Assembly (NCBI GenBank): GCA_008632985.1
Contig: QPGO01000006.1
Location: forward strand, 434,001 to 498,000
Reading direction: 5' to 3'
Source of the DNA: Psammoneis japonica
Taxonomy: Eukaryota
Length of the DNA: 64,000 bases
The notes below the pieces were generated by a model. It was not told where the DNA came from, did no database searches, and worked only from the letters and a program-made list of their open reading frames with translations. A program made the translations under genes and the position numbers. Shown here one piece after another: positions 11,262-50,689 of this stretch (within the stretch, counting starts at the first letter, position 1; every line of letters begins with the position of its first letter).

Positions 11262-12985
11262 GTCGGATTTTCAATCGGGCCGTCGCAGCCAATTTCGGAT
11301 CTTCGACGTAGCCCAATTTCCTCCACCGACACACGCACAATGATGACAGGGTAACTACGAGCATGAAAGAGGGACTCACTGTTGCCTTCCACAGATAAAC
11401 CTCTTTCTCAAGATGACGACATCTGCCAACACCAAATGTCACGATGCTCCCTGACGATGATCCAATGGCATCTGTCATTAATCAGGGGAGGGATCAAGAT
11501 CAAGGGAAGGTTGAGGAAATGGTTGAGCCACAATTGGAACCATTTGAATTGGATCACACCAGGCAAGAAGCAAGCAGCACCATGGAGATGATGGGTGCAA
11601 TGACTGCAGATGGTGATCCAACATGTCTCTCACATTGAGACCCACACAGTCAACAGCACAGTCTTCATTCTTGAGCTGAAGTCCAGAAAAGGCAAACTCC
11701 ACCATCAAACCTTGGTGTGATTGAGCTGCAGTGTGGGTGGAGTCAGGGCAGCCAGGATCTTTGTTTGTTTTCCATGAATGCATGTGGGACAAGCATCCAA
11801 GGGAGAGGTGCCATGAGTGAACATTGGTGCACCATCAACACGTTTGTGATGCAAGTGATGATCACTTGGATGTCCAAGCCATTGGCACCACAGCAGTCAC
11901 TCAGTGTCTGCCTTGAGTGTCTGGACAGGCACCCATTTCTCAATGTCATGAGATTCAAAGGGAACATCATGGTGAACATGAGGAATCAATTTGGGTGCTT
12001 CTTTGAGAACACTTTTGTGGTTTTCCTTGCAAGCATCAATCATGCATGCAATGACAGCATCATGTTCCTTGACAAAAGTTGTGTCATTCACCTTGAGCTC
12101 CAAAATCAATTCATTCAGTGCACACCCAATTCTGGCAGTGTCGGCAGAGGATGGGCAGAGCATTGTCCATTGACCAACTGGCCGTTGACTCAACCACATC
12201 TTTGCTGGGTCCAAAAGGGTGTTTGGCAGTGCCCTTGCAAGTCCTGTTGCTGTGAAATGTCAAAAAACAATCAACTGGTGAGAAGGCACAGAAAATGCAC
12301 TTGTCAACCAAGAAGGCAGGCTGGAGCTGAGGAGGATGACAGTGCGCACAGGTGTGTGGTGACAAGGAGTGCACAAACAACTAAACCCATGGGGAGTGGC
12401 ACCTTCTGCAAGAGCCAGATTGACCTTGAGGGGATGTGGGTTGTTTGGTGCAAATGACTTTGTTGCTGGCATGTGACTCACAGGCACCTGCACCAAGCAG
12501 TGCACAATGTTCATTGGTGCCACACTGTGCAATCGTGCTGATTTTGAAAGCTTTGCATTGAAAGCTTTGCACTGAGCATCAAAGGCAACAGACAGAGAGA
12601 TCCAGGGTGGTGGCACAATGTTTGTTGACATTCAAATGAGTTGAGAGAGTGGCAGCACCAAAGTCATCATGATGATCAGTGCAGTCCAGCTCAAATGGGT
12701 CAAATGGCAGCTCAGCCATTTCCTCAACCCCCCCTGGTCATCAATGGGTGCCATTGGATCATTGTCAGGGAGTGTTGTCATGACAGCAGAGCTCATGTCA
12801 TCTTTTCAAAAAAGTGGTTTGCACTGTGGAAGAAGCCAACAGAGTGGTTCTTGGCCCCCTCTTTCACAGCAGAAGCTGACCCACCACAGTTGCCAGCATG
12901 TGTGTCTCAGCTCAGTGGGGAGAAAATGGGGTGTGCACCAAAGATCATCTGAAGCCAGTTGTGATGGCCCGGTTGAAAAACTGAC
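11262..12985. repeat. Degenerate inverted repeat; arms at about 11262-11560 and 12675-12985 (relic element termini)
   Basis: ctccctgacgatgatccaatggc (11447) matches gccattggatcattgtcagggag (12750) in reverse complement. gtcggattttcaatcgggccgtc (11262) matches gatggcccggttgaaaaactgac (12963). Confidence 0.7.
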
Positions 12986-13298
12986 TGTGAAAAATCTGAT
13001 GCATGCTGTGGTGCAGCCTCTTGCTTCAAGAGCTGGCAGAAATGAGTGTGAAAACCCTTGACACAAGGGCCACTCTTCAGGACAATGGGTCAATCTGCAA
13101 AAAGATGATCACCTGTGCAGACTTAACACAGATGCTTGGTTGCCTCATTTGGCAAACCTTGAGCTCCAAAATGGACACCCCAAGCAAGTTCAGTGCAGGA
13201 AATGGCTGTCATCTTTTGCAGGCATGTCAAGAGCATCAACTTCTTCCTCATGTGGGCTGTCAAAGTGTTGTCTCATGGGGCCAAAGCATTGTCAGAGC

Positions 13299-13532
13299 AG
13301 TCACGACTCAACGTCATTCTGGTCGCATCTCACGACTGCAACCCAGACTCAGATTTTCTCTTCGAAACAATTGGCTCATCACAAAATCGATTCAAACAGA
13401 AGCAACGACATTCGTCATAATTTCCAGACAACGACTTTCAACAAGCGTCTGTTTACCTCTGTCGCCACTCACATTGCCACCAACCTCCGAGGTCTCATCC
13501 ATCCTGCTCAGCTGCAGGACTGTATCTCGACT
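13299..13532 (+). repeat. 5' LTR (AGTC…GACT)
   Basis: Colinear with 20306-20539; 16 transitions and no indels by my manual alignment. Confidence 0.95.
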
Positions 13533-13694
13533 GGTCACAGAGACCAATTTACGCGTTGACGAGAGCTCCTGACCGAGTCATCGTCACGGACGCTTTCGGT
13601 TTTTGATTTTGAAGCAAACCCGGGAAACAGCTGAGTCTCTCTCGCTTCTCTCGTCTTCACTCTAACAAGAACCTCCCACACCACACTCTCTGTC

Positions 13695-16600
13695 ATGGCT
13701 GCCATCGATCCAGATGTTCTGGCGAAGGCGTTTGCCGATGCAATGGCCGCTCACGCCGCGGCGACCGCTCCTCCGGCTCCAACCAAGCCGTCACGTGGTG
13801 GAATTCACCCAACCCACGGGGTTTACATTGGTGGTTCCAAACTCAACAACAACTGCGAACAATCCAACGATAGAACCTGCCGACTCGCCTCTCAGCGCCG
13901 TCATCCCAAGGCTCTCGACTCGATGGAACGATCTCTCCGCGATCAACAAGCTTCCGCAATGACTTCCAAGTTCAACGGTCGACTTGAGATTTCGGACGGT
14001 CCCATCAACGAGCTTGACAAGGACCATTTCGTCAAGACTGTTCGAGATCTAGTAGAAGCCCACGGTCAGCAGACGTTCTACCATGTCAAGGACAGCGACG
14101 ACAAGGTTCAACATGTCTTCGACCATCTTCACGAGTTTGCTGTGACCGATCTCGTGAACGAGCACACGGTTGGGAAAGCAGCTGCCGATGATGCCAAGTA
14201 CGACGAGATCGAGCTCGACGATGTCGGGCTCTCTCAACTTCTCGTTCACTCAAGAATCACCAATGCCTTTCGCGAGAAAATCGAGACCAAGTTCAACCAT
14301 CTTTCGGACTGCCAAGACTGCCCTGGATCTGTTCCATTCATGATGGCTCTCGACACTTGCAATGCTGGCGCTCTAACGGATGTAGAGACGGCTAAGAAGC
14401 AGCTAGAAGACCTCAGTTTGGTCAACTGTCCCGGCGAGGATTGCACGGACTTTGCTGCCGAAGCTCTTCGCATCGTGAAAATTGTGCAGACCGACTGCGC
14501 GCTTCCGGCTAACACAAGCTCCAAGCTGCTCCACAAGATCTCCTCTGCGTCCTCTGAATGCTTCAATCGCCGAGTCTACAACAAGCTCGACGACGTCAAG
14601 GCTATGGAACGCAAGTGCCGTCTCAAGAATCCTGCTGACATCGTGTCCGACAGCGATTGCAAAACGCTCGGACCGGTCGGCATCATTGCGTGGATTCAAG
14701 AGCAACACAACGAACTCGTGAAGGACGGGGAATGGCCTGCATTGGTCGCCAAGCTACCCGAGAGTAATCTTTCGACTGCGGACAACCCTGGGAAGACGAA
14801 GCACTGTTGTGGTTGCGGTCTCGAGGGGTGCACCAAGAAGACGTGTCCAAAGTGCAACGCCAAACCGCCGCGCGACGATCCTCCTCCCAATCCGCCGCCT
14901 GCAGACGACCCTTCCAAGAAGAAGAGGCGACCCATCGCTGCCTGGCGTGCTAAATTTGACGGAGAAACGAAGAAGGATAAGAATGGCAAGGAATGGAAGT
15001 GGTGTGCCACGTGCAAGGCGAAGGGTGCCGACAAACCTGGAATCCACCAGAAGCACTCTACCGCGGAACACACCGACGACCGCAGGCAACCTCCCAAGGA
15101 GACCCCAGCCGGGAATTTGTCTTCCGTTGCTGACCCGGATAGTGGCGTGCCCATGGGTCCGCCCGCTCAGACCACCAAGGCACCAGAGGGAGACGAATCC
15201 GACCCCAACGAGTTAGTTTTCACGAGAATGTGGTGCGCGGCTACGGATCCCGTTGCCGACCCGGATTTCTGTTCCGCCCCTGTCACTGCTGCAATTGTTG
15301 TTACTCCGGCTTCTTCGGCCGAGAGGGAGAGCGATGCAGTCGTCAGCACTGAGGTGGTTTGCATCGAAACGAGCCCACCTGTACTCACCTCAGTCGTGGA
15401 TCCAGTCGTGTCTCCCATCGTGGTTGAGACTGTCACTCCCGAAGACGCCGATGACTTCTACGAATGCTCCGACGCTTTCTCTACCTTTGAAAACGAACCA
15501 CCGGCTATTGAGTTGTTTCCGGCCTCGAAGCTGTACTCTGTCAAGCATCCAGATGAGTTCTTTGACGCTCCCGCACATTTGACAGATGTGCTGTCAGACG
15601 ACACCAAGTTAGATCTCATCCTTGAACACGACATACACTTTGAAGACGCACACTGCGACTTACCTCCGTGTGTTACGTATCGTGGCTTCGATTTCTACGA
15701 TCCAGAGGTCCTGGATACGGATGATTGTCACGAGGACGTCGAAGACGAGCCCACTTCACGTCGCTCACTCTTGGGTCGAGTCAAGCCATTCACATTCTGG
15801 CTCGCCGCCATGTTTTGGGAAACGGTGCTACATCTTTGCTTTGCTCCGATCCCATGTGTCCCTCGAGCTCTACGCCGCCAGCGCAAACTCCCAACTTTGC
15901 ACGGGTTTCCAGCCTCCTGGATGGTCCCATCCGTTGCAGTGATGGCATGGTCAGCAGTTTACGCCGGTCAACAGCCCGAGCATCCATTCTCGAACGTACC
16001 AAGTCGTTTTTCGACCGCTGGCTCTCAAGTCTACCACATTGTGGAAGCGCTAGATGACCGGATAGTGTTAGATTCGGGGTCACTGTTCGAACATCACAGG
16101 ATCAAAGGCACGCAAGTACTCACCGAGTTTGTCGCGCGCCATCCGTCACACGCACTGAGCACTCGTCTCAAGGCCTGCTGGGAGAGCCTAGAAGTAGCTG
16201 AACGGTCTGATGCGATAGACGAATCAGCCTTCTTTGATGCCCATGAGGAACTGGAACCTCTCGACGACCAGAAGTATTTCTTTGACGCTCTTGAGGACTT
16301 CAGCCCGGATTTCTTCCAGTTTGACGAGCTCTGTCTGCCGCATCACATCGTGGACACTACCCATTTTCAAGATCCTGTGGAACCATTGGAGGAAGCAAGT
16401 GTTAGACCAGTCGTCTATGACACCTCCACCATCCAACCACTCACCGGACAATCACAAGCCGACCTCCTTGCATCCGATCCGCAGGCACTCATCGGTCTGT
16501 CGGACGAGGCTCTCACGGTCATCATGGATGCTGGTGCCACGTTAGCTGTTGCCCCCGACAAAGATGATTTTACGGGGCCTGTGACTGTTCCCAAGAAACC

Positions 16601-19600
16601 CTTACAGATCAATGGGATTGCCAACGGCCTTGCCATCCAGGGTGCCGGTCCGGTTGCGTGGGTGTTCACAACGCCGGGTGGGGCTACCATCCAACTGAGC
16701 ACCATGGCATGCTACGTCCCTGGAGCCCGTCAGCGCCTGCTGTCGCCTCAACGCCTCTTCAACGAAGAGAAGGGGGTGCGTGGGAAGTGTGAGGGCGATG
16801 AAACCACTTTCCGTTTACATGTTGACGGGACAGGCAAGTTGGTCGTGCCATGTCATCCATCAAGCCACTCACCTGTTGCGTCGATGACCAAGGGCGTATC
16901 TGCCGCTCCTCAAGTGAACCTTCAGATCCTTAACGAGGAGAATCAAAACCTCACGGCAGGCCAAAAGCTTCTTCTCGAAATGCACGCCCGTTTTGGCCAT
17001 TTGAACTTTGGTCGCGTCCAAGCACTTCTCCGTGCAGTTCCGTTCCTTTCGAACCGTTTCAAGTCCGCAGCGAAGTGTGACCACCCAAGATGCGAGGCAT
17101 GCGAACATGCTAAAGGTCACAGACGCTCTCTTGGATCTACTCACAAGTCGACAGTCCCTGAACGCGACGGGGCCCTTCGAGCTGACCATCTTCGACCGGG
17201 TCAGGCTGTCAGCGTTGATCATTTTGAGTCGCGCCTTCCAGGCCGCACCTTCGACTCTTGTGGCAAAGCCACGTCCAAGCAATTCAAGGGCGGTTGCATC
17301 TTTGTCGACCACGCCTCTGGCTATGTCCAGGTCGAGCACCAACCAGGTTTCTCCGCTGTTGAGACGATGCGCGCGAAGCAAGCGTTTGAGAAACATGCTT
17401 TGGACCACGGGGTCATCGTCCAAGAATTTCTTGCCGACAGTGGCGCTTTCAAGGCCAACGCTTTTGTACAACATGTGCGAGATCATGAACAACGTCTCCG
17501 TTTTTGTGGAACCAACGCCCATCATCAGAACGGCGTCGCAGAGCGGGGTGTCCGCAGCATCTCCAACATGGCGAGAGCGATGTTGCTTCATGCTTCAATG
17601 CACTGGAAGGGGGGAATTGACAGCTCCCTGTGGCCCATGGCAGTTTCTTGTGCCACGTGTGTCTACAATGTCACCCCAAATTCCAAAGGACATTGCCCTG
17701 CGGACATTTTCACCGGTTCGACAGTGCCAAGACATCGGTTGCGCGACATTCACACATGGGGATGTCCAGCGTACGTACTTGACCCGACCCTCGCTTCCGG
17801 GAAGAAGCTCCCGCGTTGGGAGCCTCGCACTCGTCGCGCTTTGTTCGTGGGACTCAGTGCCATCCATTCCAGTGAGGTTCCTTTGGTCCTCAATCTTCAA
17901 ACTGGAAGTGTTGCACCTCAGCATCATGTGGTCTTTGACGATCTCTTCACTGCCGCACCATCAATCGAGAGGGAGACGGATCCACCTGATCACTGGGAAC
18001 ACTCATGCCTCAACCAATCGACATGCATCCCTCTGGAGAAGGATCAGGCAGTTCATTTACACGATGAGTGGCTTGCCCCTCCAGAGCGTCAACGTAAAGA
18101 ACGAGAACTAGCCAGAGCAACACGTGTTCGCGGGCATTTTGAGCCTGCTCCATCGATTGCTGTGCCGGATTCACCCATTTCTTGCGACGACGTTGCCGAT
18201 CGAGTCGCACCTGCGACTCAGCAGCCAACGCCACCAGTCCCACCTGCGACTCAAACTCCTGCAGACTCTGGACTCTACGCCAATTCAGCCACCTGAACCT
18301 CAAGACAGTGACGGACTTCCGCCACCCGAAGCGCCGACGGAACCAACAGCTCCTCCCCCAGTCGAGACACCTCCCATGATGAATCCAGAGGGAGTGCCAG
18401 GGCTGCGACGGTCTTCACGGTCAACCAAGGGACAGTTCAACTCTGCCAAGTTTGTAGATGAGGTCCACTTCAGCTCCGTCGAGGAAACACCGCTGCCGAT
18501 CGGACACGAGGCTCAACTGGCGCATCTGGCGACTCTCGAGACGGATTTGGACAGTGGCACCAACAATGTCGGCGATCCACGAGCCTGCGCAGCTAGCAAG
18601 AAAACCAAGGACCCTGATGTGCCTTCGTTGCACAATGCTCTGAAAGGTCCGGACGCCGACGAATGGATTGGGGCGATGAAAATTGAAGTCAACGCACTCA
18701 CACATCGTCGAGCCTGGAAAGCAGTCGAGCGTCAGCCGCGTGTGAATGTACTTCCAGGCACATGGGCACTAAAGCTCAAGAGACTCCCAGATGGAACCCC
18801 TCTCAAGCACAAGGCCCGATGCTGCGTCCGCGGTGATTTGCAGAAAGAAGGAGTCGACTGCTTCGAAACCTGCACGCCGGTTGTGCAATGGTCCAGCATC
18901 CGACTCATGCTCACTGCGGCATTAAAGGAGGGATGGACTGCACGACAGGTGGACCACACCACAGCCTTTTGCCAAGCTGATGTCGCCGAGGAAGTTTGTG
19001 CAACACCGCCAAAGGGATTTGCGCCAAGGTCGGGACTCAATGTGGTTCTCAAACTTTTGAAAGGACCACACGGCCTAAAACAGTCTCCCAAGGGCTTCTG
19101 CGAGAAGTTACGAGCTGGTTTAACCGAGCGCGGATGGGTGCCTTCAACCATAGATCCCTGTTTGTATTTCAAAGAGGGCATGATGTGTGTGGTGCACGTC
19201 GACGACACCGTTTTTGCTGGAGCTTCAGCTGAAGCTCTAGAAGCCGAAATTCGCAAGTTAGGAGTCTCCGACGACGAACATCGCCACGCATTTGAACTTA
19301 GAGACGAAGGAGAAGTCGGCAACTTTCTCGGTGTCAAGATCGAAAAGCTCTCCGAGGGTCGATTTCTACTCACTCAACCCGGTCTAATTGACAAGGTCCT
19401 GCGTGCCGCACAGATGGAGGATTGCAATGGAGCATCCACTCCAGCTCTACCTGCGGCTGTTGGTGCCGACACGGACGGCCTGCCTTTTGATGAACCCTGC
19501 GATTGTCGCTCAGTTGTTGGAATGTTGATGCACTTGGCAGCGAACAGCCGGCCAGACATTGCACATGCCACACATCAAGTGGCTCGATTCTCGTTTGCGC

Positions 19601-20284
19601 CCCGAGCGTCCCACGCTGCTGCAGTGAAGCGGACACTCCGATGCCTCAAAGCAACTGCCACTGAAGGTCTCATTCTCAAGCCTGCGCAAGATCATCGAGT
19701 TGATTGTTGTGTCGATTCTGACTTCGCGGGGTCATTTGGTGTGGAAGATGGTCAAGACCCAGTTTCTGTCAAGTCCAGGACTGGATGCCTTGTCCACTGC
19801 GCCGGCTGCCCGCTCATCTGGGTGTCCAAGCTGCAGACTCTTGTGGCATTGTCGACCATGGAAGCGGAACATGTCGCACTTTCTCAAGCTGTGCGCGATC
19901 TCATCCCTGTTCGTGAAGTTCTCAAGGAGCTCAACCACCACGCATTCGGAAAGTCTGACCGCCAAAACCCTGTCACGACTCACTCCAAGGCTTTTGAGCT
20001 CGCAACCCAAGGCACCGATGACTCGCCTGTAGAGCAGAATGTCCTGCCTGCGTCCGTTGTGTACGAAGATAACTCCGCGTGCCTCAAGTTCGCACGCATG
20101 CCCAAGTTGTCTCCGCGAACCAAACACATCGGCATCCCGCACCACTGGTTTAGGACTAAAGTCAAAACAATTGGAGATCGACATCCAACCTGTCAGCACT
20201 CTAGAGCAACTGGCCGATCAGTTCACGAAGGGACTACGGACCGATGCGTTCCGCACGGCTAGAAAGGCTCTTGTGGGCTGGCAA
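13695..20284 (+). pseudogene. Copia gag-pol; catalytic and conserved residues mutated; frameshifts near 18270 and 20170
   Basis: Zn knuckle CCGCGLEGCTKKTC; protease MDAGAT; integrase VSVDH…ADSGAF…QNGVAER; RT ARCCVRG, HGLKQS, HVDD; RNase H DSDFAG, EAEH, EDN. Confidence 0.9.
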
Positions 20285-20305
20285 GCTCTCTCGGTTGAGA
20301 GGGAG

Positions 20306-20539
20306 AGTCACGACTCAACGTCATTCTGGTCGCATCTCACAACTGCAACCCAGACTCAGATTTTCTCTTCGAAATAATTAGCTCATCACAAAATCGATTC
20401 AAACAGAAGCAACGACATTCGTCATGATTTCCAGACAACGACTTTCAACAAGCGTCTGTTTGCCTCTGTCGCTGTTCACATTGCTGCCAACCTCCGAGGT
20501 CTCACCCATCCCACTCAGCTGTGGGACTGTGTCTCGACT
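20306..20539 (+). repeat. 3' LTR
   Basis: Direct repeat of 13299-13532, preceded by the polypurine tract. Confidence 0.95.
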
Positions 20540-22502
20540 AGAGTTGGGTCTGGAGGATCACCATCAAGAGTGGGCAGTTCTTCCTCTGTTGACACGCCAT
20601 CAGGAACATGACATCAGCTGTCATTGTGATGTTCTTGTTGGCAACAAGGGCTCCCCATTCAATTGAACAACAGCACATCTGTGCACCAGAAATCAGGCTG
20701 TCAGCCTGGCTGCTGAGGAACATGCTGCTGAGCATCCCCCCACAACTTGCTTCATGGCATGCTTGGATTCATGGGCAGGAGAAACACACTCATTCTTTGC
20801 AGCAATCATTGAGAACTTTGAGTGCATTGCATTCTTGACAAAGACAGTTGTCTCTGGGTTGTCATTCAACACAGTGCATGCAACAGCATCAAAAATGAAA
20901 GCTTGGAGTTGCAAAAAATCCTTTTTGAACAGAGCAAAGCAGTCTGTGATTGACAAATTTCCTTGCTTTGAGTGAGAGGAGTCCACCAAACCCAGTGCTT
21001 CCTTGCAGAATGCCAGATGTGTGCATGGAAAAAATCTGCTTTTGCGCATCTGGCTGTTGCCATGGCAAGAAGCAACAAAGAGCAATGGAGCCTGCTGGTG
21101 TTTTTAAAGAGCATCATGTCATCTTGAGTGGATGTGCATGATGTCATTTCCAATGGTGAGACCCCAATCTCCACCATGGTTGTGTGGAAAGAACCGCTGC
21201 TCACAATGGACAAATGCAGCACTCACAATCAGTGGTTTGCCACTGAAAATTGAGGTGCCACCAGCAGCCAGTTGTGTGGCAAATTGTCATCACACAAGCT
21301 TGGTGTTATGAAGGAAGAAGGCTTTGTAATCTGGTGTTAGATTGACAGTCAAGATGAGGCAGTTGGTGGCATCCAAATGGTGCAGACAGCTGCTGGCATG
21401 AGCGACCATTGGGGCATCACTTTGTTGAGACCCGTGCTGGTTGCAAGTGTCTGACAGCAGTGCATCTGGGCTGAACAGGTGCTTGGATGACAAAGACACA
21501 ACAGGTGCCTTGTCACTCAAAATGCCAGCTGCTGGGTGCATTTTTGATGCATCACAGTTGTTGCTCAGCACATCAATTGAACTGGAGCTGTTGACAGAGC
21601 CTGGCTCAGCAGGTGCCAGTGCCGCTGTGGTCTTGGGGGCATGCTTGGGTGGGAAAGGTGAGTTCAATTGGGGTGCTGCACATCCAGGGCAAAAAACAGA
21701 TGTGTGCTGTGTCAACCACAGTGCAGCTGCTTTGTGGTGCAAGCTTTGACAATGGCAGTTTGGATCTTGCAGCCCCATCCAACATCTTTCATGAGAGATG
21801 AGGCAGAATGTCATCACCCATTTTGCTGTCATTGCCTTGAAGGCAGTGGTGCAACAGATGATGCACATTGGCAGGGTTGCTTGTTTCTGGCAGGACAAGT
21901 TTGTTGAGGATGTGCGCCTTCAACATGTCAACAACACATGACCCTTGGAGATTGTGTGCATGTGTTTGGCATCATCCTCAAAAAACAGATCTGGCTTGAT
22001 GACAATGCCTCTGTAGATTCCACTGAGGCATTCAACAGTTTCAGGGTGATGCAAATGTGGTTGGATCTCTGGGGTGATGCCCTTGAGAGTGTCAACAATG
22101 CCCCTTTTTTGGCAAGCCTTGAGTCACATGATTGGTTGTGAGCAAAACAGTCACAGAGATTCAGCACTGTCCTCACAGCCCAAAAAACATCCGGGGTTTG
22201 CAGCAGCACAGAAGAGTGTGTGCAACACATCACAAGGCCACACCAAAAGAACCTGTCCCACAAAGTGCAGCAGTGGGTGGACAAGATGACAAACACTCAG
22301 GGGCTTCTTGCAAACCAGCAAAAGTGGCATCATGTGCACTGACAAGAAAGAGTGAGAGACAGATCTTAGAGAGATTTGCTTGGCCACCTGAAAGGATGCC
22401 TGGCCACCATCACCCACAAACAGAGTTTTGCATGTGTGCACATGGCCTGTTCCAGCTCCAGGCATCCAAAAAAGGGGCATGATCCATCGCTGGGGCATGT
22501 TT

Positions 22503-22650
22503 TTGCATTTGGCACAATGAACTCTTTCAACTTCGATTGTGAGTGCACACAAAACTTTTGTTTTTTTTTGTGAGCATTTGTTTTTGTGTGTGCTCACCTT
22601 TTGATTTTTGAAATGATCAAAATTGATGGAATTCATTGTGCCAAATGCAA
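22503..22650. mobile_element. Small MITE-like inverted-repeat element (about 150 bp)
   Basis: ttgcatttggcacaatgaa (22503) and ttcattgtgccaaatgcaa (ending 22650) are perfect reverse complements; the match extends imperfectly to about 38 bp. Confidence 0.55.
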
Positions 22651-23742
22651 CCCTCAGCTGGCATCTTGCATGATGGATCACGGATCACCTGGAGCTGTGG
22701 AACAGGCCACATCCGGTCAGCTGACAGCTGTGCATGCACCCACAGCTGAGATTTTGAAATGGGAGGACCAGATGCATGCAGCATGCATTCACACTGAACA
22801 ACTTGCATGGACAAAGCTGTCATCTCTGCTGTTCTGCCATCAGATCAAGAATGGAATGTGCCGGCACACTGCAAAGAACACCGCTGATGACAGGTGTCTT
22901 TTCGGGGTGTGCTTCTCAGAGCAAACAAAGGTCATTTAACACAACAAAGGAGAACCCCCCACCTCCATCTCACTCAGCACTTCCTTTTAATTGATCCGTC
23001 ACTGCACACATGAAAACATCACTCTGTGCTGCTGCCGACAAAGAACACAGCCAAAACAAGGTTTGCCAGACACAGAGGGCAGGGGGGCTGCTCCCAGCCA
23101 ACCTTCTCTTCTCTCTTCTCCAGCCAGTGGCCAGCCCCACTGACAGGGACAGCTAGCCACAGATGGAATGCAGCAACAAAGCAAAACACAGAATTTGTGT
23201 TTAAAATGCTGCCTGCTGCTGCCACACTTCTGCCCTTCCAACTCCGAGAGGGCGTGGCAATGGGCTGCATGCGCCATGCTACACTAAACTAACTGCGGCA
23301 GGCAGGCAGACACACTTTCGGCGCGACGGCTTTTGCAACGGTCTAAATAAACAACTTTAATCCCTAAGATATTTTGAAATCATGTATACCATTATTAAGG
23401 TGTAAATACATTAATGAATAACTTAAGTCTTGGATATCTTTTTTAGTATGGCCGAGATCCCACATAGATTCGTTTGCGATAGCGGAACCTCTATCATAGG
23501 AATATCCTCATTTTGATATACTATTTTATGTTCATTTCTTTGTTTACACGAGTTGCGAGCGATGTGGCAAATCGCAAACACTCACGAAATACAAATCGTT
23601 TGTGATGACCATATCATCGTGTGTTTGTTTGTTTTTACTTTCGTACCACGCATTTTGCTGTCGGAGTCGACTATCCAATATCCGTTCCTTCTTTATTTTG
23701 ACGAGAGTAGCTGAATTCTAAAGGGATAGAATCTGAAGGACA

Positions 23743-32179: not shown

Positions 32180-33150
32180 TTGCCCACTCTATGTTGGCGA
32201 CCACCTGTCCAATGGTCCCTCGTGCTGATGCTTGGTCCAACGCTCTTCACGACTCGTCATCATTTGTTCTTCTGGCAAATGGGGATGTACGTCCATGCTC
32301 ACTGCACAACCACATTGCCAAATTTGAACGTTCTCCACTCGCAATTGGAAGAGCTGCATGTCATGTCATTCCACGATGCATCACAGCAACACCGGGAGCA
32401 AAGTTGACAAGATTCTTCTTGCCAGTGTCGGGGTCCACAAAGCAAAGGGAAGATCCCATCCATTCTTCGTCGCCATTCGGCAAGTTCAAGTTGATGTTGA
32501 CGAGTGTCAACAATGAGGAAGCATCCAAGTGTTGACAAATGGACTGTTCCTTTCCTGCCTGGCGCTGGATCGAAAATGCAAAGCCCCCGAGTCGTCCGCG
32601 CCTTGAACACATTTGGGAAAGAAGAGACTGCCCAAAGGACGCATGCAGGTGTCCATCAAGTTATGGCAAAAGGTTTGAAACTGAGGGATGGCCATGCACC
32701 CAACGGAACAAGGATCAATCATGAACCCATTGCGGTTCAAAACAATTCCACAACGTGGGTGAGTTGGGATTCTTGCCTTTGATGCCTCACCCAGGTGCAC
32801 TCTTGTGAGAGCAATTTTGAATGGATTGAAGAATTGGCACTGGCAGGCACCGGGCGCAACTTCTTTCCACGGGTCACAAACCAGCTTCTCCTTGCTGGGG
32901 TCCTTTCGTGCTTCTTGAACAGCCTTGTGCAAGTCAGCATCAATGACAGAGTCATCCAGCTTGGGAAGTGATGCACCCTGTGCCCATTCCTCCCATGCTT
33001 GGATGAGCAACTCATCATTTGTTTCCCAAAACTTGGCAACCGACCAACAGGTCATGATGAAGCATCTCCTCACGGGAGGGAAATTTCAACTGATGGGCCT
33101 TTTGAAGGTGGGGCGCTGTGGCAGCAGGAGCAGATTGGAGAGCCATGGTT
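32180..33150 (-). pseudogene. Degenerate 2OG-Fe(II) oxygenase-like gene
   Basis: Fragments DASSLLTLVNINLNL…GSSLCFVD…FAPGVAVMHRG…ALPIASGERSNLAMW lie in shifted frames and are Tyr-depleted. Confidence 0.6.
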
Positions 33151-33797
33151 GAAACTGAAGCAACTTTCTTGAGAAGCATCCTTTAGATGATGAGCCTTTT
33201 AGTTTTGCTCTTGATCAATTTTGTGTGATGAGAAGTTGTGGGGCTGAAAAGTTAAAATCCAACAAAGGAAGCATTCAATGAACCTTCTCCTCTTTCATTG
33301 ACAGTGAAAACTGTCTTGTTTTTTGTGTGGCTCTTTAAAACTCGAACGTCGCGATTTCGGCACCTTTCTGATTAGATTCTTTATGTGTCCTCAGAAACCC
33401 ATGAAAACTTGTGACTTCTCTCCCCAAACAAGTCGAGGAGAGTGTAATTGAGCAGTCGAAACACTTTGTCATGTGAAATGTCCAAGTTTCCATCGTCCTG
33501 GAGAGGGTTCAAGTTGGCGAGCCGACTTTGGCGATTTGTGTAGAAAACACACTAAGCTCCACGTGCGCAGAATCTGGCCGACTTTTTTCCCCTTACCACC
33601 TCAATGTCAAGACAGCATCGTTGATGGCCGACTGAGTGCATGATGGCATGCAAAATGCCCAAATGACATTAAAGTGCACAAAGGAAGAAGTTCCTTCTGC
33701 TTTCATCACAGCAAATGCTGCTCAGAGCTTCCAGTCTAAATGTTGAAAAATGTTTGTCAATGTTTGGAATTGGATCCTGTGTGTCCTTGGCACAGGT

Positions 33798-34048
33798 TCA
33801 TTGTGAGACCCCACAAATGCAAAGGGACCCTCCTGCAGAGCTCCACTCAAATTTTTGCATGTGGTTCTGAAACATGCAGCCTGCATGCACAAAACTGGTG
33901 CAATTTCTGTGACAAAAATCCAAAAAAATGCCCAGTTCGTGAGACAGCTCTGGTGCAAAACCTGCGCAAACAGCCCCCACACATTCACGCAGAACTCTGC
34001 ACATTTCCGGGTTGCGGGTCCCTCTGCATTTGTGGGGTCCCACAATGA
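33798..34048. mobile_element. MITE-like element with TIRs of about 33 bp
   Basis: tcattgtgagaccccacaaatgcaaagggaccc (33798-33830) versus gggtccctctgcatttgtggggtcccacaatga (34016-34048); 2 mismatches in reverse complement. Confidence 0.7.
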
Positions 34049-35727
34049 GGGTGGTGGCAGGTGACTTTCCAACAAAAATCTCTCTTCATCAGGCTGCGGT
34101 CACAGTCCACAGAAATTTGAATGTCATCTGTGAGGCTTTTCTTGACACAATTGCCACGCTGTTTGAAAGAGCCCTCATTGTGCTGAGCAAAACATTTTTC
34201 TAAATTTTTCTTGTTGCTGCCTCTTGCACCCATGTCTTTGAAAATGTGCAGTGTGCCAATGCTGCACCTTGCAATGCAGCACAAAGAATGAAAAGGCTTC
34301 TTGCAGTGCACTGCAAAACAGGGTCAGGACACGTGTCCTTGTCAGCAAAAAAGAAATCACTTGTGCCTTTTGTGTAAAATGACATGGTTGTTGGCCTTGG
34401 TTGTCATGCACGCCAGTTCCTGCAACCATGGAATGAGAACAAAAAGAGTGCATCATTGCTCTCAATGCTCAAGAGAAGGGGGCAAATCCTCTGCATGATG
34501 AGAGTGACAATGTGATGTGAAGTGGCGTGAGTTGTGCGTCATTTTCATTCACTCTGCAATGATTGTGTTTTTGTCATGATGTTGCAGGCAGGCTCAAAAG
34601 TCCACAACAGACAGAAAGTGCAAACACGTGGGCATGATGGAGTGTCAGTGTCCAGTGAAGTTCTCTTGAAGCAAGCACAAGCCTGCAAAACGACATTTGC
34701 GATTTTGGGCACACACACACACAATCCATTTGCCTTGGCACACAAGCTTTGAGACAATGCACACCTTCCAGGTGGCAACAGAAATCAACAAACCCAGTCA
34801 ACACACCACTTGACTTGAGCTGTCAGCTGCATCACCAATTGTGTGTGAAACATGATTTCCAAATTGACACATCCCAAACAAAGGTGGAACCGAGTGCTTC
34901 TAAAATTTGAGTCCAAGTGGCTCTTCCCCTCTGTGCACGTTTTTTCATGTTGGTCCACCATTTGAGACAAAATTGCAAGGTTTCACCTGACATGAACTGA
35001 TTGATTCATTGTGTCAAAGAGGGTTGAAGCGTGGGTCCTTCCAATGATGGTGACAATCATTTGATGTTGTGCACAGGTTGCATCTTGTGTGCCACATGGG
35101 AGCTGCACCTCAAGCATCTCCTTGTGGATGGGGGAGGAGAAATGACATGCTCAGCACAGACACATGGAGCTGAATGGCAGGCAAGTTGTGGGCCATCATG
35201 ACTCAGGATGCAATTCTGTCATTTCATTTGCCAACATTGCCGTGCACCCATTTGTTTGCTCTTTCCATTCTTGGCCCATGACGAAGTAAAGAGCTGAAAC
35301 AACCTGCCATGTTGTGTTGATGCTGGCATGTGCAATCAAGAATTGAATGGTGGAATGGTCTTGTAGAACACAGCATGAGTGCAGTGCTTTGTTGCAGCAC
35401 ACTAAAAGTTGTGGCCCCACTCAAAGGACAACAATTCCACATTTTGCTGCAAAATTTCAAGTTGGACTGGCAGGCAGTGTTCAATGCCAATGGCATGGAT
35501 TGTGTCGAGGTTCTCAGACAGGCAAAGATGAAACACCCCATTGCACCATTCCTGATTTTTTTGTCTCTGTCATTCCAGCATGACATTTGGAGATGTCATG
35601 CCAGAGACAACACAAACACACAACCTCCTCATCTGCACACATCTTCAACGGCACCAGCACAGGAGGGGCCACAACTTCAAACTCACATATCAGCCCCCCC
35701 CCCCCCCCCCCCAAAAAAAAAGCAGTG

Positions 35728-35915
35728 CAATTCATTCACCACATTTTTGGGCCTTGATTGAGTGGCTGCCATCTGCAAGATGTGACTGCGTGCTGATTCA
35801 CAACCAAGAAAAGAAACAACAATTCACAACCAACAAAAGATCATTGCAAAAAATGGTGCTCCACCCAGTGTGGCGCAAGTTGCTCACATGGTGCATTCAC
35901 AGCCATGAGAAGAAA
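35728..35915 (+). pseudogene. Mutated duplicate of the 3' end/3' flank of the FYVE-RING gene (29809-29990)
   Basis: Colinear similarity: caattcattc…gccttgatt…ccatctgc…gattca.aacc…gaaaagaaaca…aaaagatcatt…gcaagttg…gagaagaa. Confidence 0.8.
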
Positions 35916-36992
35916 AAGTTTGTGGCCAACAAAAGTCACAATGAATTGCTGTGGCATTTGGCGTGGTGCACAGCATGTTCACACAGTGTGACAAGAGCAC
36001 AAGAAGACTGAAGTGCCTGGCACAGCCATTGCCACTTGCAATGGCTGCTGCTTGCTTGCACCCGGCTCAAGCAGCTGGGTGCCTCAGAGGTGCCATCTCT
36101 GCCTGTTTTAGAGTTGCTGCAGGAAATTGGGGCTGCCAAGATCTCCATTTTTTGGCTCAGCTCGGTTTTTCATCTTTCCATGTTGTGCTTTTCACACCAA
36201 CAAGAAAGAGAGCTTGGGAGAGAGAGAGAGTGAGAACTGGTGGCTCCACCCGAGCTGCTCTTGTTCTTTGTTTGTCACATTTGATGGAAAATCGGCTGTG
36301 CCGATTTTGTCGTTCGTTCGAGAGAAAGAGAGAAAGTGTTCTTGGCATGGCTTTCCTTTGTCTGATGCTGCCGCTCTCACCTCGTTTCTCTGCCACATCG
36401 CCCAGTGCATTGCTCAATGCCAGTTGGGGTGCACTTTCTGTGATGGGCTGGCACCAGCTGAAGTGGACCTCAACCTCCCGTGCCACTCTTGCCATGCAGG
36501 AGTACACACAGTGTCGCTGTGACGCATCATCTCAGTGCTGACGTGGAGACACGCCTGTTCCATCGTCCGCCTGGGCGGGATGGGCCCGCCTCTTGTCCCT
36601 CGAATAAACTGATCATCTATGTATCATCTGAAGATTTCAAATGCAGTGTTTGAAGTGATTTGCGCGACCAACAATATCCTACATGAATGAACATGAAGAT
36701 GAATTTTGAGTCGGGGCAAAAAAGTTCCCCGAAAATTTGTACTCCAAACGCAATACTAAAATTCTTCTACATAAGACTCAATCATAAAATACATATGCTC
36801 CTGAAGAAACTAAATACAATTTGAAATAAATCAAATTTCTTCCGTTCCGATCTTCCGTTGTGACGTGGATTATAGCCCACAAATTTGTCAACAGACAGGC
36901 TGGGGTGCAAGTCACGGGTTGGAGCTGAGCGAAGGTCTATTCGATACAAAACACTGCACTCATTTCTTCTTTGTTGTGATCCATCAACCACC

Positions 36993-42848: not shown

Positions 42849-45800
42849 GTATTGTCGTATAGTGTAACTGCTGCCGTTCGTCTTTTGTTGGTATTGTTGT
42901 TGGCTGTTGCTGCAAGTAATGTGTATTGAAGTCTACAAGCATTGACATTGGGGTTGAAGAAGAGGCTCATCGACGCATTCACCTCCTGAGAAATCTCCAA
43001 ATCGTTCTCTCTGGAACACGGGACAAAATTTTTGAAAAAATGGGATTGTGCCGCCTCGCGCGCCTTTTTCGACTTAGACATTTAATAACGGTAATTGATG
43101 TGTCACTTATGAAACTGAATTCATAAATTTAATAAAATTATATAAAATGAATAATAATATAAGAAGGAATTCATAGACTTGAATTTATGCTGTGTACATT
43201 TTATGTATAAGTTTTTGGATTGAAACGTGGTAGTTGTGAAATTTAATCAATAAGAACTGTAGACATTGATAAAGGATAAAAAATGGCGCGAAAGCCGTAT
43301 TGGCCAATGTAGCTTTCCACGTACACGCACCTTGTACTGTTGGCACACGGGGGAGAGTTGGTCGCGCGATGAAACGTGGGCTCGATGCGCAACAACTGCA
43401 GGAGAAGCAGTGGGAACAATGGCGGGGGATTCCAATCCGCCTGTCCGATAGAAACATTGCCCATTGCGTGCCATGTAAGTGCATTTAACTTCACAAGAAG
43501 AGATTGGACCACAAAAAATCGGGGTGGATCATTTGTCAGAATCTGCTGTGCTTTTCAATGTGCTGTGTGTGAAGCTGCGTGCTGCGTGGCTGGCATGGTT
43601 GATCACTCGCACTTTGCTCTTGTTGCCATCATCAACAACGAGATTCAGAAGATGATGGGCATCTTTTCAGGAAGAAACTGTGAATGACAAAGGTGCACAG
43701 CATTGCACACACCAGCCCCCCTTTTGGTCAACTTCCTCTGATGACGTTGACAATGTGGCGCGCGGCTTTGATCGCTCTCAATGGAGACCCATCATTTGCA
43801 GCCCCACGTCGAGAACTTCAGAAGCTGTGGGAACAGTCTTTGATCTGTTCCAGTTCTGTGGCAATGGAGGTGCAAATCAACTTTTGATGCTGCAATTTCA
43901 ACATGGAGCTGTTTGCCAAACTGAGCAAAAAATTGCAGCAGGTTTTTGCACAGTGCTCATTGCCTCTCCCTCATGAAATGGAGCACCAGGCCACCATGGA
44001 AGAGTGGCCAGGGGGAGTGTTTCCAGAGAAGCCAGCACCAACAGATGCAGATTGTCTCCCCGACTTCAAATCACTTTGCAAAACAGAAGCTCATCAGCAT
44101 GGTGATCTCATCCTTGGTGCACTCTAAGACCTTCTCAGCACAAACCGGGAATGCTCAAAGTTGGCAAAAAACAACCAAATCTTTGCCCAGGTCCTTGGCA
44201 GCCAAAGAAGAGTTCACATTGTTGCTGCAAAGGGCACAAAAGATGGCGATGAGTCCAACCTTAATGCACTTAAAATGGCTGACTTTTTGGTGACTCAAGA
44301 GGTCAAGAGGGTTGCGACTCGTCATTTGTGCAGCTCAGCTGTTGCTTTGAAGAAAGCAATTTTGCCAAGGGAGCGAAAAGTGCTGGGGTTCATTTCTTGT
44401 GCACTGTTGGCAATGAGCAGAGTCAATGCTTTGCAACAGCTGTGGCTTCCCAAACACCCAAAATGAGGTCATGTGTGTGCCATGCTGTTCTTTGTCCAGC
44501 ATGCCATGATCCCCACTGTGCACAAGATGACCTTGCCTCTCAACTGCCATCAAATGCTGCATGGCATGATGTTGAAGAAACAGCTGTTGCTGAGAAAGTT
44601 TAGAAAGATTCAGAAGTGCTTGCCCACAAGGTTGACTGCCAACCACCAGCCAGATGCAAGAATCAGGAAGTTGCTTTCAAACTGTGACACGGCCAGTGCT
44701 GCAGCAAAGTTGAAGGCTCAAAACAAAGCAGCATTTTGTCCATGCAAGAAGATTCTTGGTCTCTCTTTTCCACGCTGCAGTGTTGCTCATGCAAAATTTT
44801 CAGGCTGCATGGCATTGCATCACCAGTCATGCAAAAAGAAGTTTTGTGGGTGCTGTCACATTGGCTTTGAAACTTTGTGACAACTGCACAAGCATGTCTG
44901 ACACACAGTGCTTGATGAACAAAACAAGAAATGCAAGTTGCTGCACCATGGATGAAAAATTCAAGAATGCCCAGCAATGTTGTCAAACAAAGAAATTCAA
45001 GCAATTCTCATCCATGGGTTCAAAAAGGAAGTGCAGAATGCCACCATCATTGAGCTGCAAAGTGACCTGGAGAACCTCAACATTGACCACCATGCTGTGC
45101 TCTTTGAATTTGGGAATCTGCAAGATGAGCTTGAGCTGCTGAACATTTGTCACTTTGGTGCTCTGAAAAAATTGCAGGGCTGTTGCTGGTGGGGCATGGA
45201 GAGAGTGCTTTTGAGTTTTCCCTTGCTCTTCTTTGTTGTCTGGATGTGATGTTGTGTTCTTTTTCTTTGGATGTCTTGTTGTCAGCAGAAATGTTTTGGG
45301 TGGATGTGCTTGACAAAACTTTTGCTGGTTCATTGTTTTGTTTGTTGCTCACTGTCTCATTGCACAGTTGTGAAGAATTCCTTGGGGTTCCCTGCCACTG
45401 CCTGAGTGAATCAGCACCTCAATGACATCCCACAGTGATCTGCAGCTCTGGATCCAGAAGCGCAGCATCTTCTTGGAAGCATTTTGCCATGCAGCAGCAG
45501 GCAGCAAATGTGGCAGCACCAGCAGCAGGAGCCTGGAGAGCAAGCTGTCTTGGGGGATCTCTCAGTCTGCAGCAGCAGCAGCAAAGCCCACCCCACAGGT
45601 GCAGCAGCACACCTGGCACTGTGTGAGAAAACAGCCATGCTCCAGAGAGACAAAAAACCAGAAGCAAGCATGGCATGAATTCTCCCAAAACAGGAAAAAT
45701 GTGTGGCACAATCCAAGTGGCAGGCCAGGCCAGGGATCTCCATCTTTGGCACAAACAAAGTGCAAAATGACACACAGTCACAGACAACCTCCTGCAAAGT

Positions 45801-48800
45801 TGCCAGGGCATCTTGAATTGCTGCCATGGGCAAAGCACACTGACAACACAAGCAAGGATGACTTGCTTTGCAGTGATTTGAGTGCCATGTGCAGCACAGG
45901 AGCACGTGTGCTCAACAACATGGCACCAGCCAGCATGAGCTGTTGCAAGTGCCCAAACACTGCTGTGCCTGGCACTTTCCCCATTCTTGGTCATCATTTG
46001 CACACATGTGTGCAATGCTTGCATTGCCACAGAGCCCTGTGCATGCTTTGTGCCAGGTGGCAAAAAGGTGTGGGAAATGCCCTGCTCAGGTGGTGCTCAG
46101 GCCAATGACAAACAATGAGCTGATGCCCATTTCATGAGCTGCCACATTTGTTGTGATTGTGTTTGCAGTCAACAGCAAGGACAAAAATGGACAAATGAAC
46201 AGAGGTGTGCTCCTTGCTCCATTGACAACCATTTCACTTTTCAGGAAGAAATTGTGGTGGGTGACAAAGTGCACAGCATTGCAGCAGCAGCATCTTTCCA
46301 TTGATTTTTGCTGACAATGTTGACATGATGAGTTTGATCATTCTCAAAAGTTGGGAGATGTCTCCAGCCAGCTGCCGGCTGAAAAATCTTGACCAGAATG
46401 ATTTGCACTGAAAGAGTCTGTCAATCAGCCTGTTTTTTTTTTGCCAGATTTGGCAAGTGCCAGACACAGACCAGAGTGGCTGCTGGGTAAAAATGTGTTG
46501 GCAAATCCAATCAAATGCACTGATGGCAGATTTTTCCAGCCAGCAGCTGGCTGGAGAAGTCCCCTGCCAATGCCTCATTTGCAGCCAGCCCCAAGTTGTG
46601 GAGCTGTGGGAGCTTGGAACAGTCTTTGTCGTGAGGCTGTGCCAGCGGTTTTGCAAATTAACTTGTGCTGCTGCAATCATTTCCATGCAGAGGAGCAACA
46701 CCAAGCCATTCCCACAGCCGCCAAAGGTGACTTTGGCAGTTTTCAAGACAGCATTCATGACTGTTGCGAGTCAAAAGGGGGCATGTGTGGAGAAGGATCC
46801 ATTGCAGAATGCAAATGATCTGGGCAAATTGCCACAGCTTGTCAAGCACCAGCCAGTGGCAGCAGAAGGAAACAATGGCATTGAAGCCATCCGAGCACCA
46901 ATGTGTGGCACACTCAGGGGTGGATTTGACCAAGAGAAGGGGCTGCACACAAGCCTTTTGCACATGGGAAGCAACACTCCACAACAATCTTGCACTCTTC
47001 AACAATGGCACATGCACCTTTCTGCTCTTGTCAAACAAGAGACATGAGGAGACTCATTTGCCAAATTGCAGCAAAAGCTTTGAAAGGGATTTCAACTTCA
47101 AATGGTGTTGGTGAAGGGCCAACCTGCAGTTTGCCCCTGCATCAGGTGCAAGACCACAGCCACAAAGGGACAAATTAAGGTTTGAGCATGGCTCTGCCAT
47201 CCAATTTGGTGGTCTTCTTAGTGCCTCCAATGGAGCAAGGAAGTCTGTGCATCAGCAGGCAGAATTGTCCAGTCCGTCATCTGTGCAGCAGCAGAAAATG
47301 ATTGGTGGCAAAGAAGAAGAAGAAGCAGCAGCGTCCATTTGATTTTGAAATGCATGGTGCTTTTTGAACCACACACAGTCAATTGCCAGCCAAAACTTCC
47401 AGAGTTGCATGATGCCCTTTTCCACAATGAGTGCTGGGTGCTTCATGGCAAAGCTCAGCAAGTTGTTGTTGTTGGTTGTTGTTGTTGGTTGAGTGACATG
47501 CTCAAAATCCACCAGAGAGGAAAGTTCCCTCTCCCACTGTTGCAAACATCTGTTTTCTTGGAATCCACCCATCTTGTTTAAAAAAAAGCCATTTGATGCT
47601 GCTGCAATTCACAATGTCAGGCACATGTCCAGTCATGTGCTCCAAGTTCATGAAACAATGGAAGAGGAAAAGGAGAAGGAGGGGGGGGATGAGGTCTGAG
47701 CCCAATGTGCACCCACGTCATCCAGATGACTGATGCACCTCAGGTGTCAGGTGGTGGCCGGGGGGCCTCAACACAAAAACAACAATGGCAGCAGCAACAG
47801 CTGCTGCTTGACATTGTTGCCAAGGTCAAACCTTTTTCCCAAAAAAAAGGAATGCATGGCATTCTGTGTTTTTTTCTGATGAGTGCATCAACTGAAAGAG
47901 AGGTGAGACAAAATCCAAAAATGGATGAAAACTCTCTTCTGTTGACATTTCTGCTGGCAGTGCTTCAGTCTCACAACTTGCTGCTCATTTCAACTTTGCT
48001 TCACACTGGACAGATTGAACAGCATGGAACCTCTGTTTGTAGAGACCAACCACACTAACTCCTTCTGAAAGTGCAAAAACGAAACCCTTGTGAGTGCCGT
48101 TGTTTCATGTTGCTGCCACTGCCACACACCATGCCATCATCTGCAAGACTGGCATTGCTTGATGCAGTCCACATTTTGAGGCAGTGTTGTGGTCAGCAAA
48201 CAACTCTTTGAAGTGACCTTCAGGGGTTGTTGGAATTGGTCAGCATGGCGGTGCCCCACTCCAGCACTGTTGAAACATGCAGCAATCTACAATCCACCAT
48301 TTTTGGCTGGAAAAGTGCACGTGCAAGTGGCAGACAAGGTTGCCCTTGTCTCTAAAAATCATGCGCAACTGCTGAGGTTGCTGGCTGCAGCAACACCTCA
48401 GTGATTTTTTGCAACAATGTTCATGTGGCCTGGGATGCCAGTGCCTCCCCCCCCCCCCCCCCACCTCTGAATGTTGAGATGGCCAATGAGAGCCAAAGGG
48501 TTGCTCCCTTGTGAGGTGTCAACTGGCACTTCCAAGGATGGGAGTGCTTTCAACTGCTGCAGGAGACTCAAAATCTCTGTTTGATGGGGTTCACCTGCCC
48601 TCAAAGGTGGTTTGGATTGTTGAAATTTTGCAGCTGGGTGGCACAGGGAGCAGGTGGTGCTGGAGCATCCATGTGCTGCATGGGAGTTGGCTTGTTGCAG
48701 GAGTCGGCAGCAACATCAAGGTCATTGACACTCATCAGAGCACATGACACAGTGGTCAAGGTGCCGCCTTTCTCACGGCAGTTTTTCACCTTTTTGCAGG

Positions 48801-50230: not shown

Positions 50231-50689
50231 TTAAAAATGAGGTTGGGTTTTGTGTGCACGAGGTGAGCCACACATGTGCAAGGGACACACGCATGTGAGT
50301 GGGGAGAACAAAGTGGGGACCAAGCTCAAAATGCATTTGATTGGAGTTTGCATCAGAAAAGCTGTTGAGACATCAGATGAAATGCACAAAACATGTGCAT
50401 TTTGTTTGGTGCTGTTGCCGACATTTTTCAAATTCAACTTGTCAACAATTTGGACAGTGCACATTAAAAAAATGTGCAATGGAAAGTGGAGACCACTGCA
50501 TTGCACCCTCTCACATTGCGGTGTTTTGTTTGAACAAGTGCAAGCTTGTCCAGTTGCCTTTGTTGCTTGCCGCAAGGTGGCAGCATTGGCAGCACAATCT
50601 GCAAACTTGCCGGCACTGTTCACATCTGGTCTTGAAACAGTTGCCTTCAATGGAGCCATTGGCTCATTGAGGTTGGTGGTTGGAGCAGT

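Follow-up and report, generated by a model that had tools for sequence, protein, structure and literature searches.

TpA hypermutation of integrated LTR retrotransposons in the diatom Psammoneis japonica

Hypermutation at TpA dinucleotides has been described for nucleocytoplasmic large DNA virus (NCLDV) and virophage DNA integrated in the genome of Bigelowiella natans (Mettrop et al., bioRxiv 10.64898/2026.01.13.699255). According to this preprint, the enzyme is not known, an ADAT-type deaminase is proposed, and TpA-poor coding sequences are enriched for reverse transcriptase and DDE domains. The rate per generation is put at about 1000-fold, with activity limited to certain lines. Here we report that TpA hypermutation is a real feature of the diatom Psammoneis japonica, based on a 7.24-kb Ty1/copia long terminal repeat (LTR) retrotransposon in a 64,000-nucleotide stretch of contig QPGO01000006.1 (positions 434,001 to 498,000; hereafter the window) and on further LTR elements of the same genome. 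As in Bigelowiella, the changes are transitions from TpA to TpG or CpA, occur in nuclear DNA and on both strands, and lie in repeats or regions of foreign origin; almost only TpA is affected, the altered DNA is chromosomal, and repeats are hit while most host genes are spared. The two cases differ in that Bigelowiella is a rhizarian, studied through mutation-accumulation lines and single-copy viral inserts, whereas the diatom is a stramenopile in which LTR pairs, target site duplications (TSDs), and insertion junctions record the process. Old blocks of diatom DNA have also lost TA almost completely, which is a recorded difference from the Bigelowiella case. The words diatom, LTR, and context do not occur in the main text of the preprint, so the TAY rule (Y, pyrimidine), the halo of changes outside TA, the zonal load, and the effect on dating presented below are not found there, although its supplements may hold context data. 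A literature search, which covered few subscription papers, returned no report on diatoms or LTRs, and only the Bigelowiella preprint was relevant.

Ascomycete repeat-induced point mutation (RIP) likewise inactivates transposons through dinucleotide-specific transition hypermutation of chromosomal repeats. RIP makes TpA from CpA, whereas the diatom process removes TpA and is therefore opposite in direction. RIP depends on RID/DNMT4 and on the sexual cycle. APOBEC activity on vertebrate LTR retroelements is another host hypermutation that distorts age estimates, but it consists of strand-biased G>A changes made in retrotransposition (PMC4866542), while the diatom changes are A>G, strand-symmetric, made after integration, and reach host bases. 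The engineered TadA editors ABE3.1 and ABE8e-YA resemble the diatom process in converting A to G in DNA and favoring a 3' pyrimidine; they accept both CA and TA (PMC12528748), whereas CA is the least used 5' context in the diatom.

The genome surveyed comprises 91.4 Mb in 597 contigs, and the LTR of the window element had at least 41 matches in it. The family set combined 18 fetched regions with the window (35 LTRs and 15 LTR pairs, 14 of these with matching TSDs). A further 36 regions, picked from the best-scoring copia and gypsy matches with long frames and biased to young elements, gave 33 pairs in seven other LTR groups; L098 and L112 (68 to 69% identity, not LTR pairs) and L104 (a member of the window's family) were left out of these totals.

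Direction and timing of the mutations

The two LTRs of the window element form a gapless 234-nt direct repeat with 93% identity. An earlier note on this DNA had counted 16 differences in a manual alignment, all transitions and without indels, and a scripted comparison returned exactly these, in the same classes: five TA versus CA or TG (one TA/CA and four TA/TG), four CA/TG doubles (8 nt), one CG/CA, and two other C/T. Thirteen of the 16 fell within the 28 of 234 columns that make up TA-class sites (binomial p 4e-10, a generous value, because the alignment of this family also served to define these sites). The same spectrum was found in the other pairs. Together, the 15 family pairs showed 34 TA/CA, 54 TA/TG, 27 CA/TG doubles, 19 CpG transitions, 12 other transitions, and a single transversion, and the TA-type share of LTR-pair differences was 142 of 174 nt in this family and 330 of 397 in the 33 pairs of other groups.

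The direction of change is TA>CA/TG, and the RIP-type change, C>T at CpA making TpA, was not found. At the five TA sites of the window pair, TA is carried by 9 to 25 of the 35 family LTRs, and TA, CA, and TG coexist at four of the five, so the family is not confined to TG or CA there, as a RIP-like direction would have it. A single change turns either TA or CG into CA or TG, and the earlier note had accordingly allowed either source for the doubles; among the 35 LTRs, the counts of TA at the four double sites are 9, 8, 16, and 7, against 0, 1, 0, and 0 for CG, which resolves the source as TA. Within the internal region, aligned over 15 copies, TA, CA, and TG occur together at 126 sites, while CA and TG occur without TA or CG at 115. 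At true CpG sites, CG is retained in 95% of alignment cells (one copy at one site), and such sites hence cannot supply the latter.

Conserved tyrosines of the predicted proteins provide independent evidence on direction. In the window copy, the 13 columns that hold Tyr in at least 70% of 120 homologs carry Cys (6), His (6), or Trp (1), and the conserved Asp (17/17), Gly (19/19), and Arg (17/17) columns are all kept. Across the 15 copies, the same 13 columns hold Cys 88 times, His 84, Tyr 7, Trp 15 (all in one column), and a gap once, with both Cys and His present in 11 of the 13. This mixture within Tyr columns indicates that the copies began with TA and were hit independently. No more than two changes of the Tyr>Cys/His type were counted in any of the 114 scored homologs, so close relatives of the window element do not generally carry the signature. 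Shared descent of the mutated states was also considered and is unsupported: over 151 saturated sites, the spread of pairwise sharing does not exceed a binomial expectation, and of the 246 variable columns outside pyrimidine-purine steps, 197 are singletons, which speaks against it.

The earlier note had placed the changes in chromosomal DNA because LTRs and TSDs are identical at insertion. The conclusion stands but the argument is insufficient, since editing in reverse transcription also changes new copies and LTR differences alone are no proof (PMC4866542). The decisive evidence comes from insertion junctions. On insertion, a TSD that ends in T or starts with A forms a new TA with the LTR's terminal base, and there were 14 such steps in the 14 pairs with matching TSDs (L041, which has none, was left out). 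Half of them were mutated (7/14; left 4/6, right 3/8), compared with none of the 14 other junctions (Fisher p 0.006), and at all seven the neighbor of the other TSD copy shows no prior TA there. All 11 differing TSD or terminal bases were TA-type, with one TG/CA double counted in. These TA steps exist only after integration, so the change is chromosomal and post-insertion, with the caveat that junction bases are briefly single-stranded in integration. For the window element itself, the TSD copies AGAGC and AGAGT were found where the earlier note had them, and its proposal that TA became CA there after insertion is borne out in direction by the family LTRs and in timing by the junction series. 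Moreover, the two youngest pairs of the copia family F1, with 0 and 1 difference, exceed the rest of F1 in internal TA content, which indicates that mutation builds up after insertion and that F1 was recently mobile. In one pair from another family, the two LTRs are identical throughout and their TA is intact.

These results make it very improbable that the pattern reflects RNA or cDNA editing in retrotransposition (ADAR- or APOBEC-like) or the classical RIP direction, CA/TG>TA; editing as the main source is already refuted. Families do differ reproducibly in the LTR that is spared (in F2, L091 to L097, the 5' LTR retains more TA in 7/7), as reverse-transcription gradients could give. Junction-created TA arise only on integration, however, the three-state sites and Tyr columns fix the direction, the youngest pairs hold most TA, and every copy contains both TG and CA outcomes (111 and 89 in the window copy), with neither a bias to one strand nor strand runs. 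A sequencing or consensus artefact at modified bases is less credible still. A contig from public run X1 covering 11500 to 13324 agrees with the window's depleted flank and junction in 1822 of 1825 letters, including the C at 13298 in the left TSD, although this run is possibly the genome's own source and thus tests the assembly and is not an independent sample. A listing of sequencing runs with this DNA named one DNA run and none of RNA. Load is also graded by copy and zone, and the identical pair with intact TA argues in the same direction. The three differences between the run X1 contig and the window (at 11539, 12348, and 12675), which comprise a transversion, a CA/CG difference, and an A>G before T, may be alleles.

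Sequence signature and zonal load

Across 293 TA-class sites, 73% of cells were mutated (40% TG and 33% CA, a split mostly due to flanking context); at 501 CpG sites, 5% were. Per-adenine hazards of 1.1 to 2.0 for TAT, 0.7 to 1.6 for TAC, and 0.2 to 0.7 for TAA and TAG show that the first two are hit about three times faster, and an A 5' of the T adds a further ~1.5- to 2-fold. Hence, T[A>G]Y is the target, both strands are hit about equally and independently, and TA surviving in old blocks is mostly NTAR (R, purine). Transversions at TA-bearing sites were few (17 of ~4450 cells, ~0.4%), as were double hits from TA to CG (16 of 3413 mutated cells). CpG transitions reached 2.4% per G, compared with 0 to 0.15% for non-CpG G>A, an excess that matches expectation because diatom transposons carry CG methylation, placed there by DNMT5 (PMC9998398). 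Outside TA, A>G was also more frequent before C or T (93/16879) than before A or G (24/19570; odds ratio 4.5, most diverged copy L043 left out), and the order of 5' bases after T was A (0.49%), G (0.30%), and C (0.19%). We read this halo as off-target action of the same agent, to which shared polymorphism may contribute.

Load differed strongly between and along elements. The number of TA kept per LTR ranged from 0 to 13 of 14 and was overdispersed (variance 14.6 versus 2.6). LTRs kept more TA where the neighboring 300 bp were richer in TA (rho 0.72, n 30), both within elements (0.62, n 13, p 0.025; L039 and L041 left out of the within-element flank tests) and in other pairs (0.41, n 34, p 0.017), and internal TA load showed no correlation with flank TA content (rho 0.17). 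In pooled flanks outside old blocks, the observed-to-expected ratio (o/e) of TA was 0.25 in the first 100 bp versus 0.55 beyond 500 bp (22 TA only). Within the window family, retention was correlated only to 50 bp (r 0.16 to 0.18, copy and site effects removed).

Zones were clearest in other families. In F1 (L085 to L090 and L119), four of seven copies were 64 to 100% mutated in the first third and mostly 0 to 26% in the last third (the exceptions are two bins of one copy at 29 to 44%), forming a 5'-to-3' front that is further along in more mutated copies, while all 6.6 kb of the element are repeated at high identity. The gypsy family G5 (L110 to L116) has a spared internal zone (3.2 to 4.0 kb), and G4 (L105 to L109) is spared in its last 0.9 kb. 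Over 77 bins from five families (L042, L043, L092, all of family F3, and single pairs left out), TA load rose with CpG loss (rho 0.66). There was no overall relationship with CpG density (rho 0.14), and that with GC (rho 0.50) is confounded, since TA>TG/CA itself raises GC.

Since F1 is repeated throughout and yet hit in zones, repeat status is insufficient as a signal, and a chromatin domain would be the simplest one; load that is zonal and tracks CpG loss points to silenced chromatin rather than repeat pairing. Target choice by pairing of repeats as in fungal RIP, with any enzyme, would account for the fact that all LTR groups examined are hit, as is a 557-bp local duplication in the window. 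We nonetheless consider it improbable, as load does not follow the duplicated extent in F1 or in the spared zone of G5, and host bases of the TSDs are hit as well. Taken together, the direction, timing, use of both strands, T[A>G]Y motif with its 5' A boost, scarcity of transversions, halo, zones that track CpG loss, and loss of Tyr with long frames kept are, in our judgment, close to certain.

Proposed mechanism and candidate enzymes

We propose that a host process turns TpA into TpG or CpA in transposon DNA once this has integrated. Silenced, CpG-methylated chromatin on part of the element may set the target, and a DNA adenine deaminase of the TadA/ADAT fold would act in many rounds on short patches that open transiently, turning A into inosine. 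The inosine would be copied as G, and ordinary 5-methylcytosine decay would strip CpG far more slowly in the same domains. The outcome would be permanent inactivation of the copy and old blocks without TA and CG. Guidance of TpA mutation by chromatin is probable, and the whole chain, from chromatin guidance through a DNA adenine deaminase, is in our estimate slightly favored over its negation.

Engineered TadA prefers YAY over YAR (PMC12528748), and the 3'-pyrimidine rule found here fits a deaminase pocket without extra assumptions. Deaminase searches of the genome returned dCMP deaminase-like genes, one TadA-like and one ADAT2-like gene, and two A_deamin loci; the TadA-like and ADAT2-like genes are expected because tRNA editing needs them. 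Profile matches, counted exon-wise and thus lower bounds, were 9 for PF00383, 5 for PF14437, 4 for PF02137, 27 for PF00145, and 6 for PF00817, and 24 frames were scanned against Pfam. One frame (L055:313-1785, minus strand) fuses a zinc deaminase domain to DIOX_N and a 2OG-Fe(II) oxygenase; from its domain make-up, a role in base salvage seems more likely than one as a DNA mutator.

Several results weigh against the chromatin-guided deaminase. Family-specific 5'/3' asymmetry and outward spreading both confound the flank correlation, with cause and effect undecided, and the within-element test gave no significant result for the CpG content of the distal flank (rho 0.33, p 0.26). TA load versus CpG loss is flat in G4 (rho -0.02) and weak or flat within three of the five families, and CpG loss is only a proxy for methylation. 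The 5' order of A > G > C after T is unlike the YA preference of TadA-derived editors, the searches for deaminase, methyltransferase, and Y-family polymerase genes gave no dedicated enzyme, and the frames scanned held no expanded or chromatin-binding-fused deaminase. Finally, four tests for strand coordination of neighboring hits were all null (e.g., 314 of 617 neighbors within 50 bp on the same strand, null 0.50, in 14 lightly mutated copies of other families), which gives no sign of long single-stranded tracts.

The same null result bears on error-prone repair, in which a Y-family polymerase (eta- or iota-like) at silenced repeats would insert G opposite template T, chiefly in TA. A resynthesis patch predicts same-strand clusters, and none were found. 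Polymerase eta favors the WA motif, which the 5' order of T >> A > G > C resembles; five Y-family loci occur in the genome, one with an eta/Rev1 HhH domain, and the correlation to 50 bp is a short-range clustering that counts in its favor. However, TA is ~73% mutated compared with 0.5% for AA>G, with transversions as rare as given above, a selectivity far beyond that of polymerase eta, and the polymerase genes look like an ordinary set. We therefore regard this route as unlikely, while still the foremost of the alternatives.

Only a little less probable is another base-modifying enzyme, for example one of methyltransferase fold related to diatom DNMT4/RID, or one that modifies T or A, which would mark TpA for miscoding or conversion, as a chemical mirror of RIP. 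The TpA change is the exact reverse of CpA>TpA, and at least six C5-methyltransferase loci have normal TA content, one of them beside a weak chromodomain match. We know of no enzyme for T-to-C conversion in DNA, however, and the 3'-pyrimidine rule would here need assumptions that a deaminase pocket does not. Diatom DNMT4, the function of which is not known, clusters with fungal RID (PMC9998398), a grouping in favor of such an enzyme. Further C5-methyltransferase-like copies (L074, L075, and L076) lie in TA-erased DNA (TA o/e 0.02 to 0.07) and are nearly devoid of Tyr, which suggests that some methyltransferase genes sit in repeats or mobile elements and have undergone hypermutation themselves.

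The window element, its surroundings, and LTR dating

Assignment of the window element to Ty1/copia is based on the LTR pair, TSD, polypurine tract, and an integrase region before the RVT_2 reverse transcriptase (Table 1), where the integrase-side Pfam matches (GAG-pre-integrase and SH3-like) are both below cut-off. Among close homologs of the reverse transcriptase, the only one with a species name belongs to the diatom Fragilaria crotonensis (60% identity), and a PDB search with the reverse transcriptase frame gave no relevant match. The position of the integrase region before RVT_2 and the 5-bp TSD are as in diatom Ty1/copia elements of the CoDi type, to which the element presumably belongs. 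Unlike the usual TG...CA, LTR ends in the window family are AGT...ACT in nearly all copies. One copy (L039) has an extra tandem LTR at its 5' end, and the copies in each of two pairs (L045/L046 and L041/L047) have a right flank in common; these arrangements point to recombination or to a segmental duplication.

Table 1. Features of the window element and the host DNA around its insertion (positions in the window)
Feature	Position	Strand	Remarks
Left TSD copy, AGAGC	13294..13298	+	Directly abuts first A of LTR; last base C forms a step with that A (T in right copy)
5' LTR, 234 bp	13299..13532	+	3/14 TA-class sites kept
Putative primer-binding region beside 5' LTR	13533..13550	+	CA/TG/TA swaps among copies; function assigned from position
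Stop-free frame, 1553 aa, first ATG 13695	13635..18296	+	Gag-like region, then integrase region; Tyr 1.1%
Second frame, 716 aa, offset from first	18112..20262	+	Copia reverse transcriptase RVT_2, E 9e-33; Tyr 0.3%; Cys or His at 12 of the 13 conserved Tyr columns
Polypurine tract before 3' LTR	20297..20305	+	Sequence the same in all copies compared
3' LTR, 234 bp	20306..20539	+	2/14 TA-class sites kept
Right TSD copy, AGAGT	20540..20544	+	TA formed with last T of LTR still present; slow CTAG context
Older host block around insertion, left part	11500..13293		TA o/e 0-0.07, CG o/e 0-0.14; 2 TA remain, both YTAA
Older host block, right part	20545..23250		TA o/e 0-0.20, CG o/e 0-0.29; 8 TA remain to 23000, 7 of them NTAR

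Nearly all TA and CG are gone from the two older host blocks and from two further blocks of the window (33000 to 36000 and 44001 to 51500). The edges near 11500 and 23250 are fairly sharp, and the remaining TA are mostly TTAA, CTAA, and TTAG. The left block contains a degraded inverted repeat (11447 to 11553 and 12685 to 12772; arms ~80% complementary, 1.1 to 1.2 kb apart), possibly an old DNA transposon. By comparison, TA o/e is 0.23 to 0.30 in the element, near 0 in old blocks, and 0.34 to 0.60 in seven host-type frames, with two exceptions among frames of this type, both on the minus strand. The first (52015 to 54099) encodes 695 aa, matches a beta-propeller family strongly (PF09826, E 1e-72), and has a TA o/e of 0.07 and 0.3% Tyr, with CpG largely kept; it lies beside a depleted block and is apparently a host-type gene caught by the mutator. 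The second (59414 to 62194; 927 aa, 0.4% Tyr) is without a Pfam match. Local direct repeats in that area (59264 to 59821 with 62354 to 62910, and 58799 to 58872 with 62287 to 62360; ~3.1 to 3.5 kb apart) differ by transitions only, in the same TA and CA/TG pattern with a larger share of CpG losses. Unlike the transposon repeats, tandem repeats at 1 to 2460 (periods of ~230 to 265 and 147 to 150 bp) have normal TA and CG. Elsewhere in the genome, the silicon transporter family had 24 matches, with three silicon-transporter domains in tandem within one 1511-aa frame at G000:C38:226311-230342.

The consequences for dating are large. Divergence over the 15 family pairs was 174/3513 (5.0%), and fell to 31/3093 (1.0%) with TA-class columns masked and to 13/2704 (0.48%) with CpG also masked; the window pair went from 16/234 to 3/206 and 2/180, and 34 other pairs from 4.2% to 0.77% with TA masked. 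With 14 TA sites per LTR, the TA contribution plateaus near 14 differences, or ~6%. The earlier note's view that LTR dating is inflated in this genome thus holds, but inflation alone understates the problem: TA-driven divergence saturates and depends on where an LTR lies, and is therefore no clock. LTR ages in such genomes would come out ~5 times too old (~10 times with CpG also masked), with saturation. Overestimation of LTR ages has been noted for RIP (PMC4522978), and a recent diatom survey dated LTR elements by sequence identity and a Phaeodactylum rate, without mention of TpA in its available text (10.1101/2025.10.24.684338). Moreover, TA>CA/TG creates no new stop codon, so dead copies retain long open frames, and annotation will treat them as intact.

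These findings extend TpA hypermutation from viral inserts of one rhizarian, known from one preprint, to diatom retrotransposons, and add junction proof of post-insertion action, a sequence motif, and internal zones, mutated or spared, through which the targeting signal can be tested directly. Tentatively, and with some doubt, the process could be a dedicated DNA adenine-editing defense of diatoms, a mirror of RIP that nucleates at element-specific silenced zones, advances with age, and crosses into host DNA. A natural DNA adenine deaminase, if confirmed, would be relevant to base editing. If homologous to the process in Bigelowiella, it would be an old system across the stramenopile, alveolate, and rhizarian lineages (SAR), built on a natural DNA adenine deaminase.

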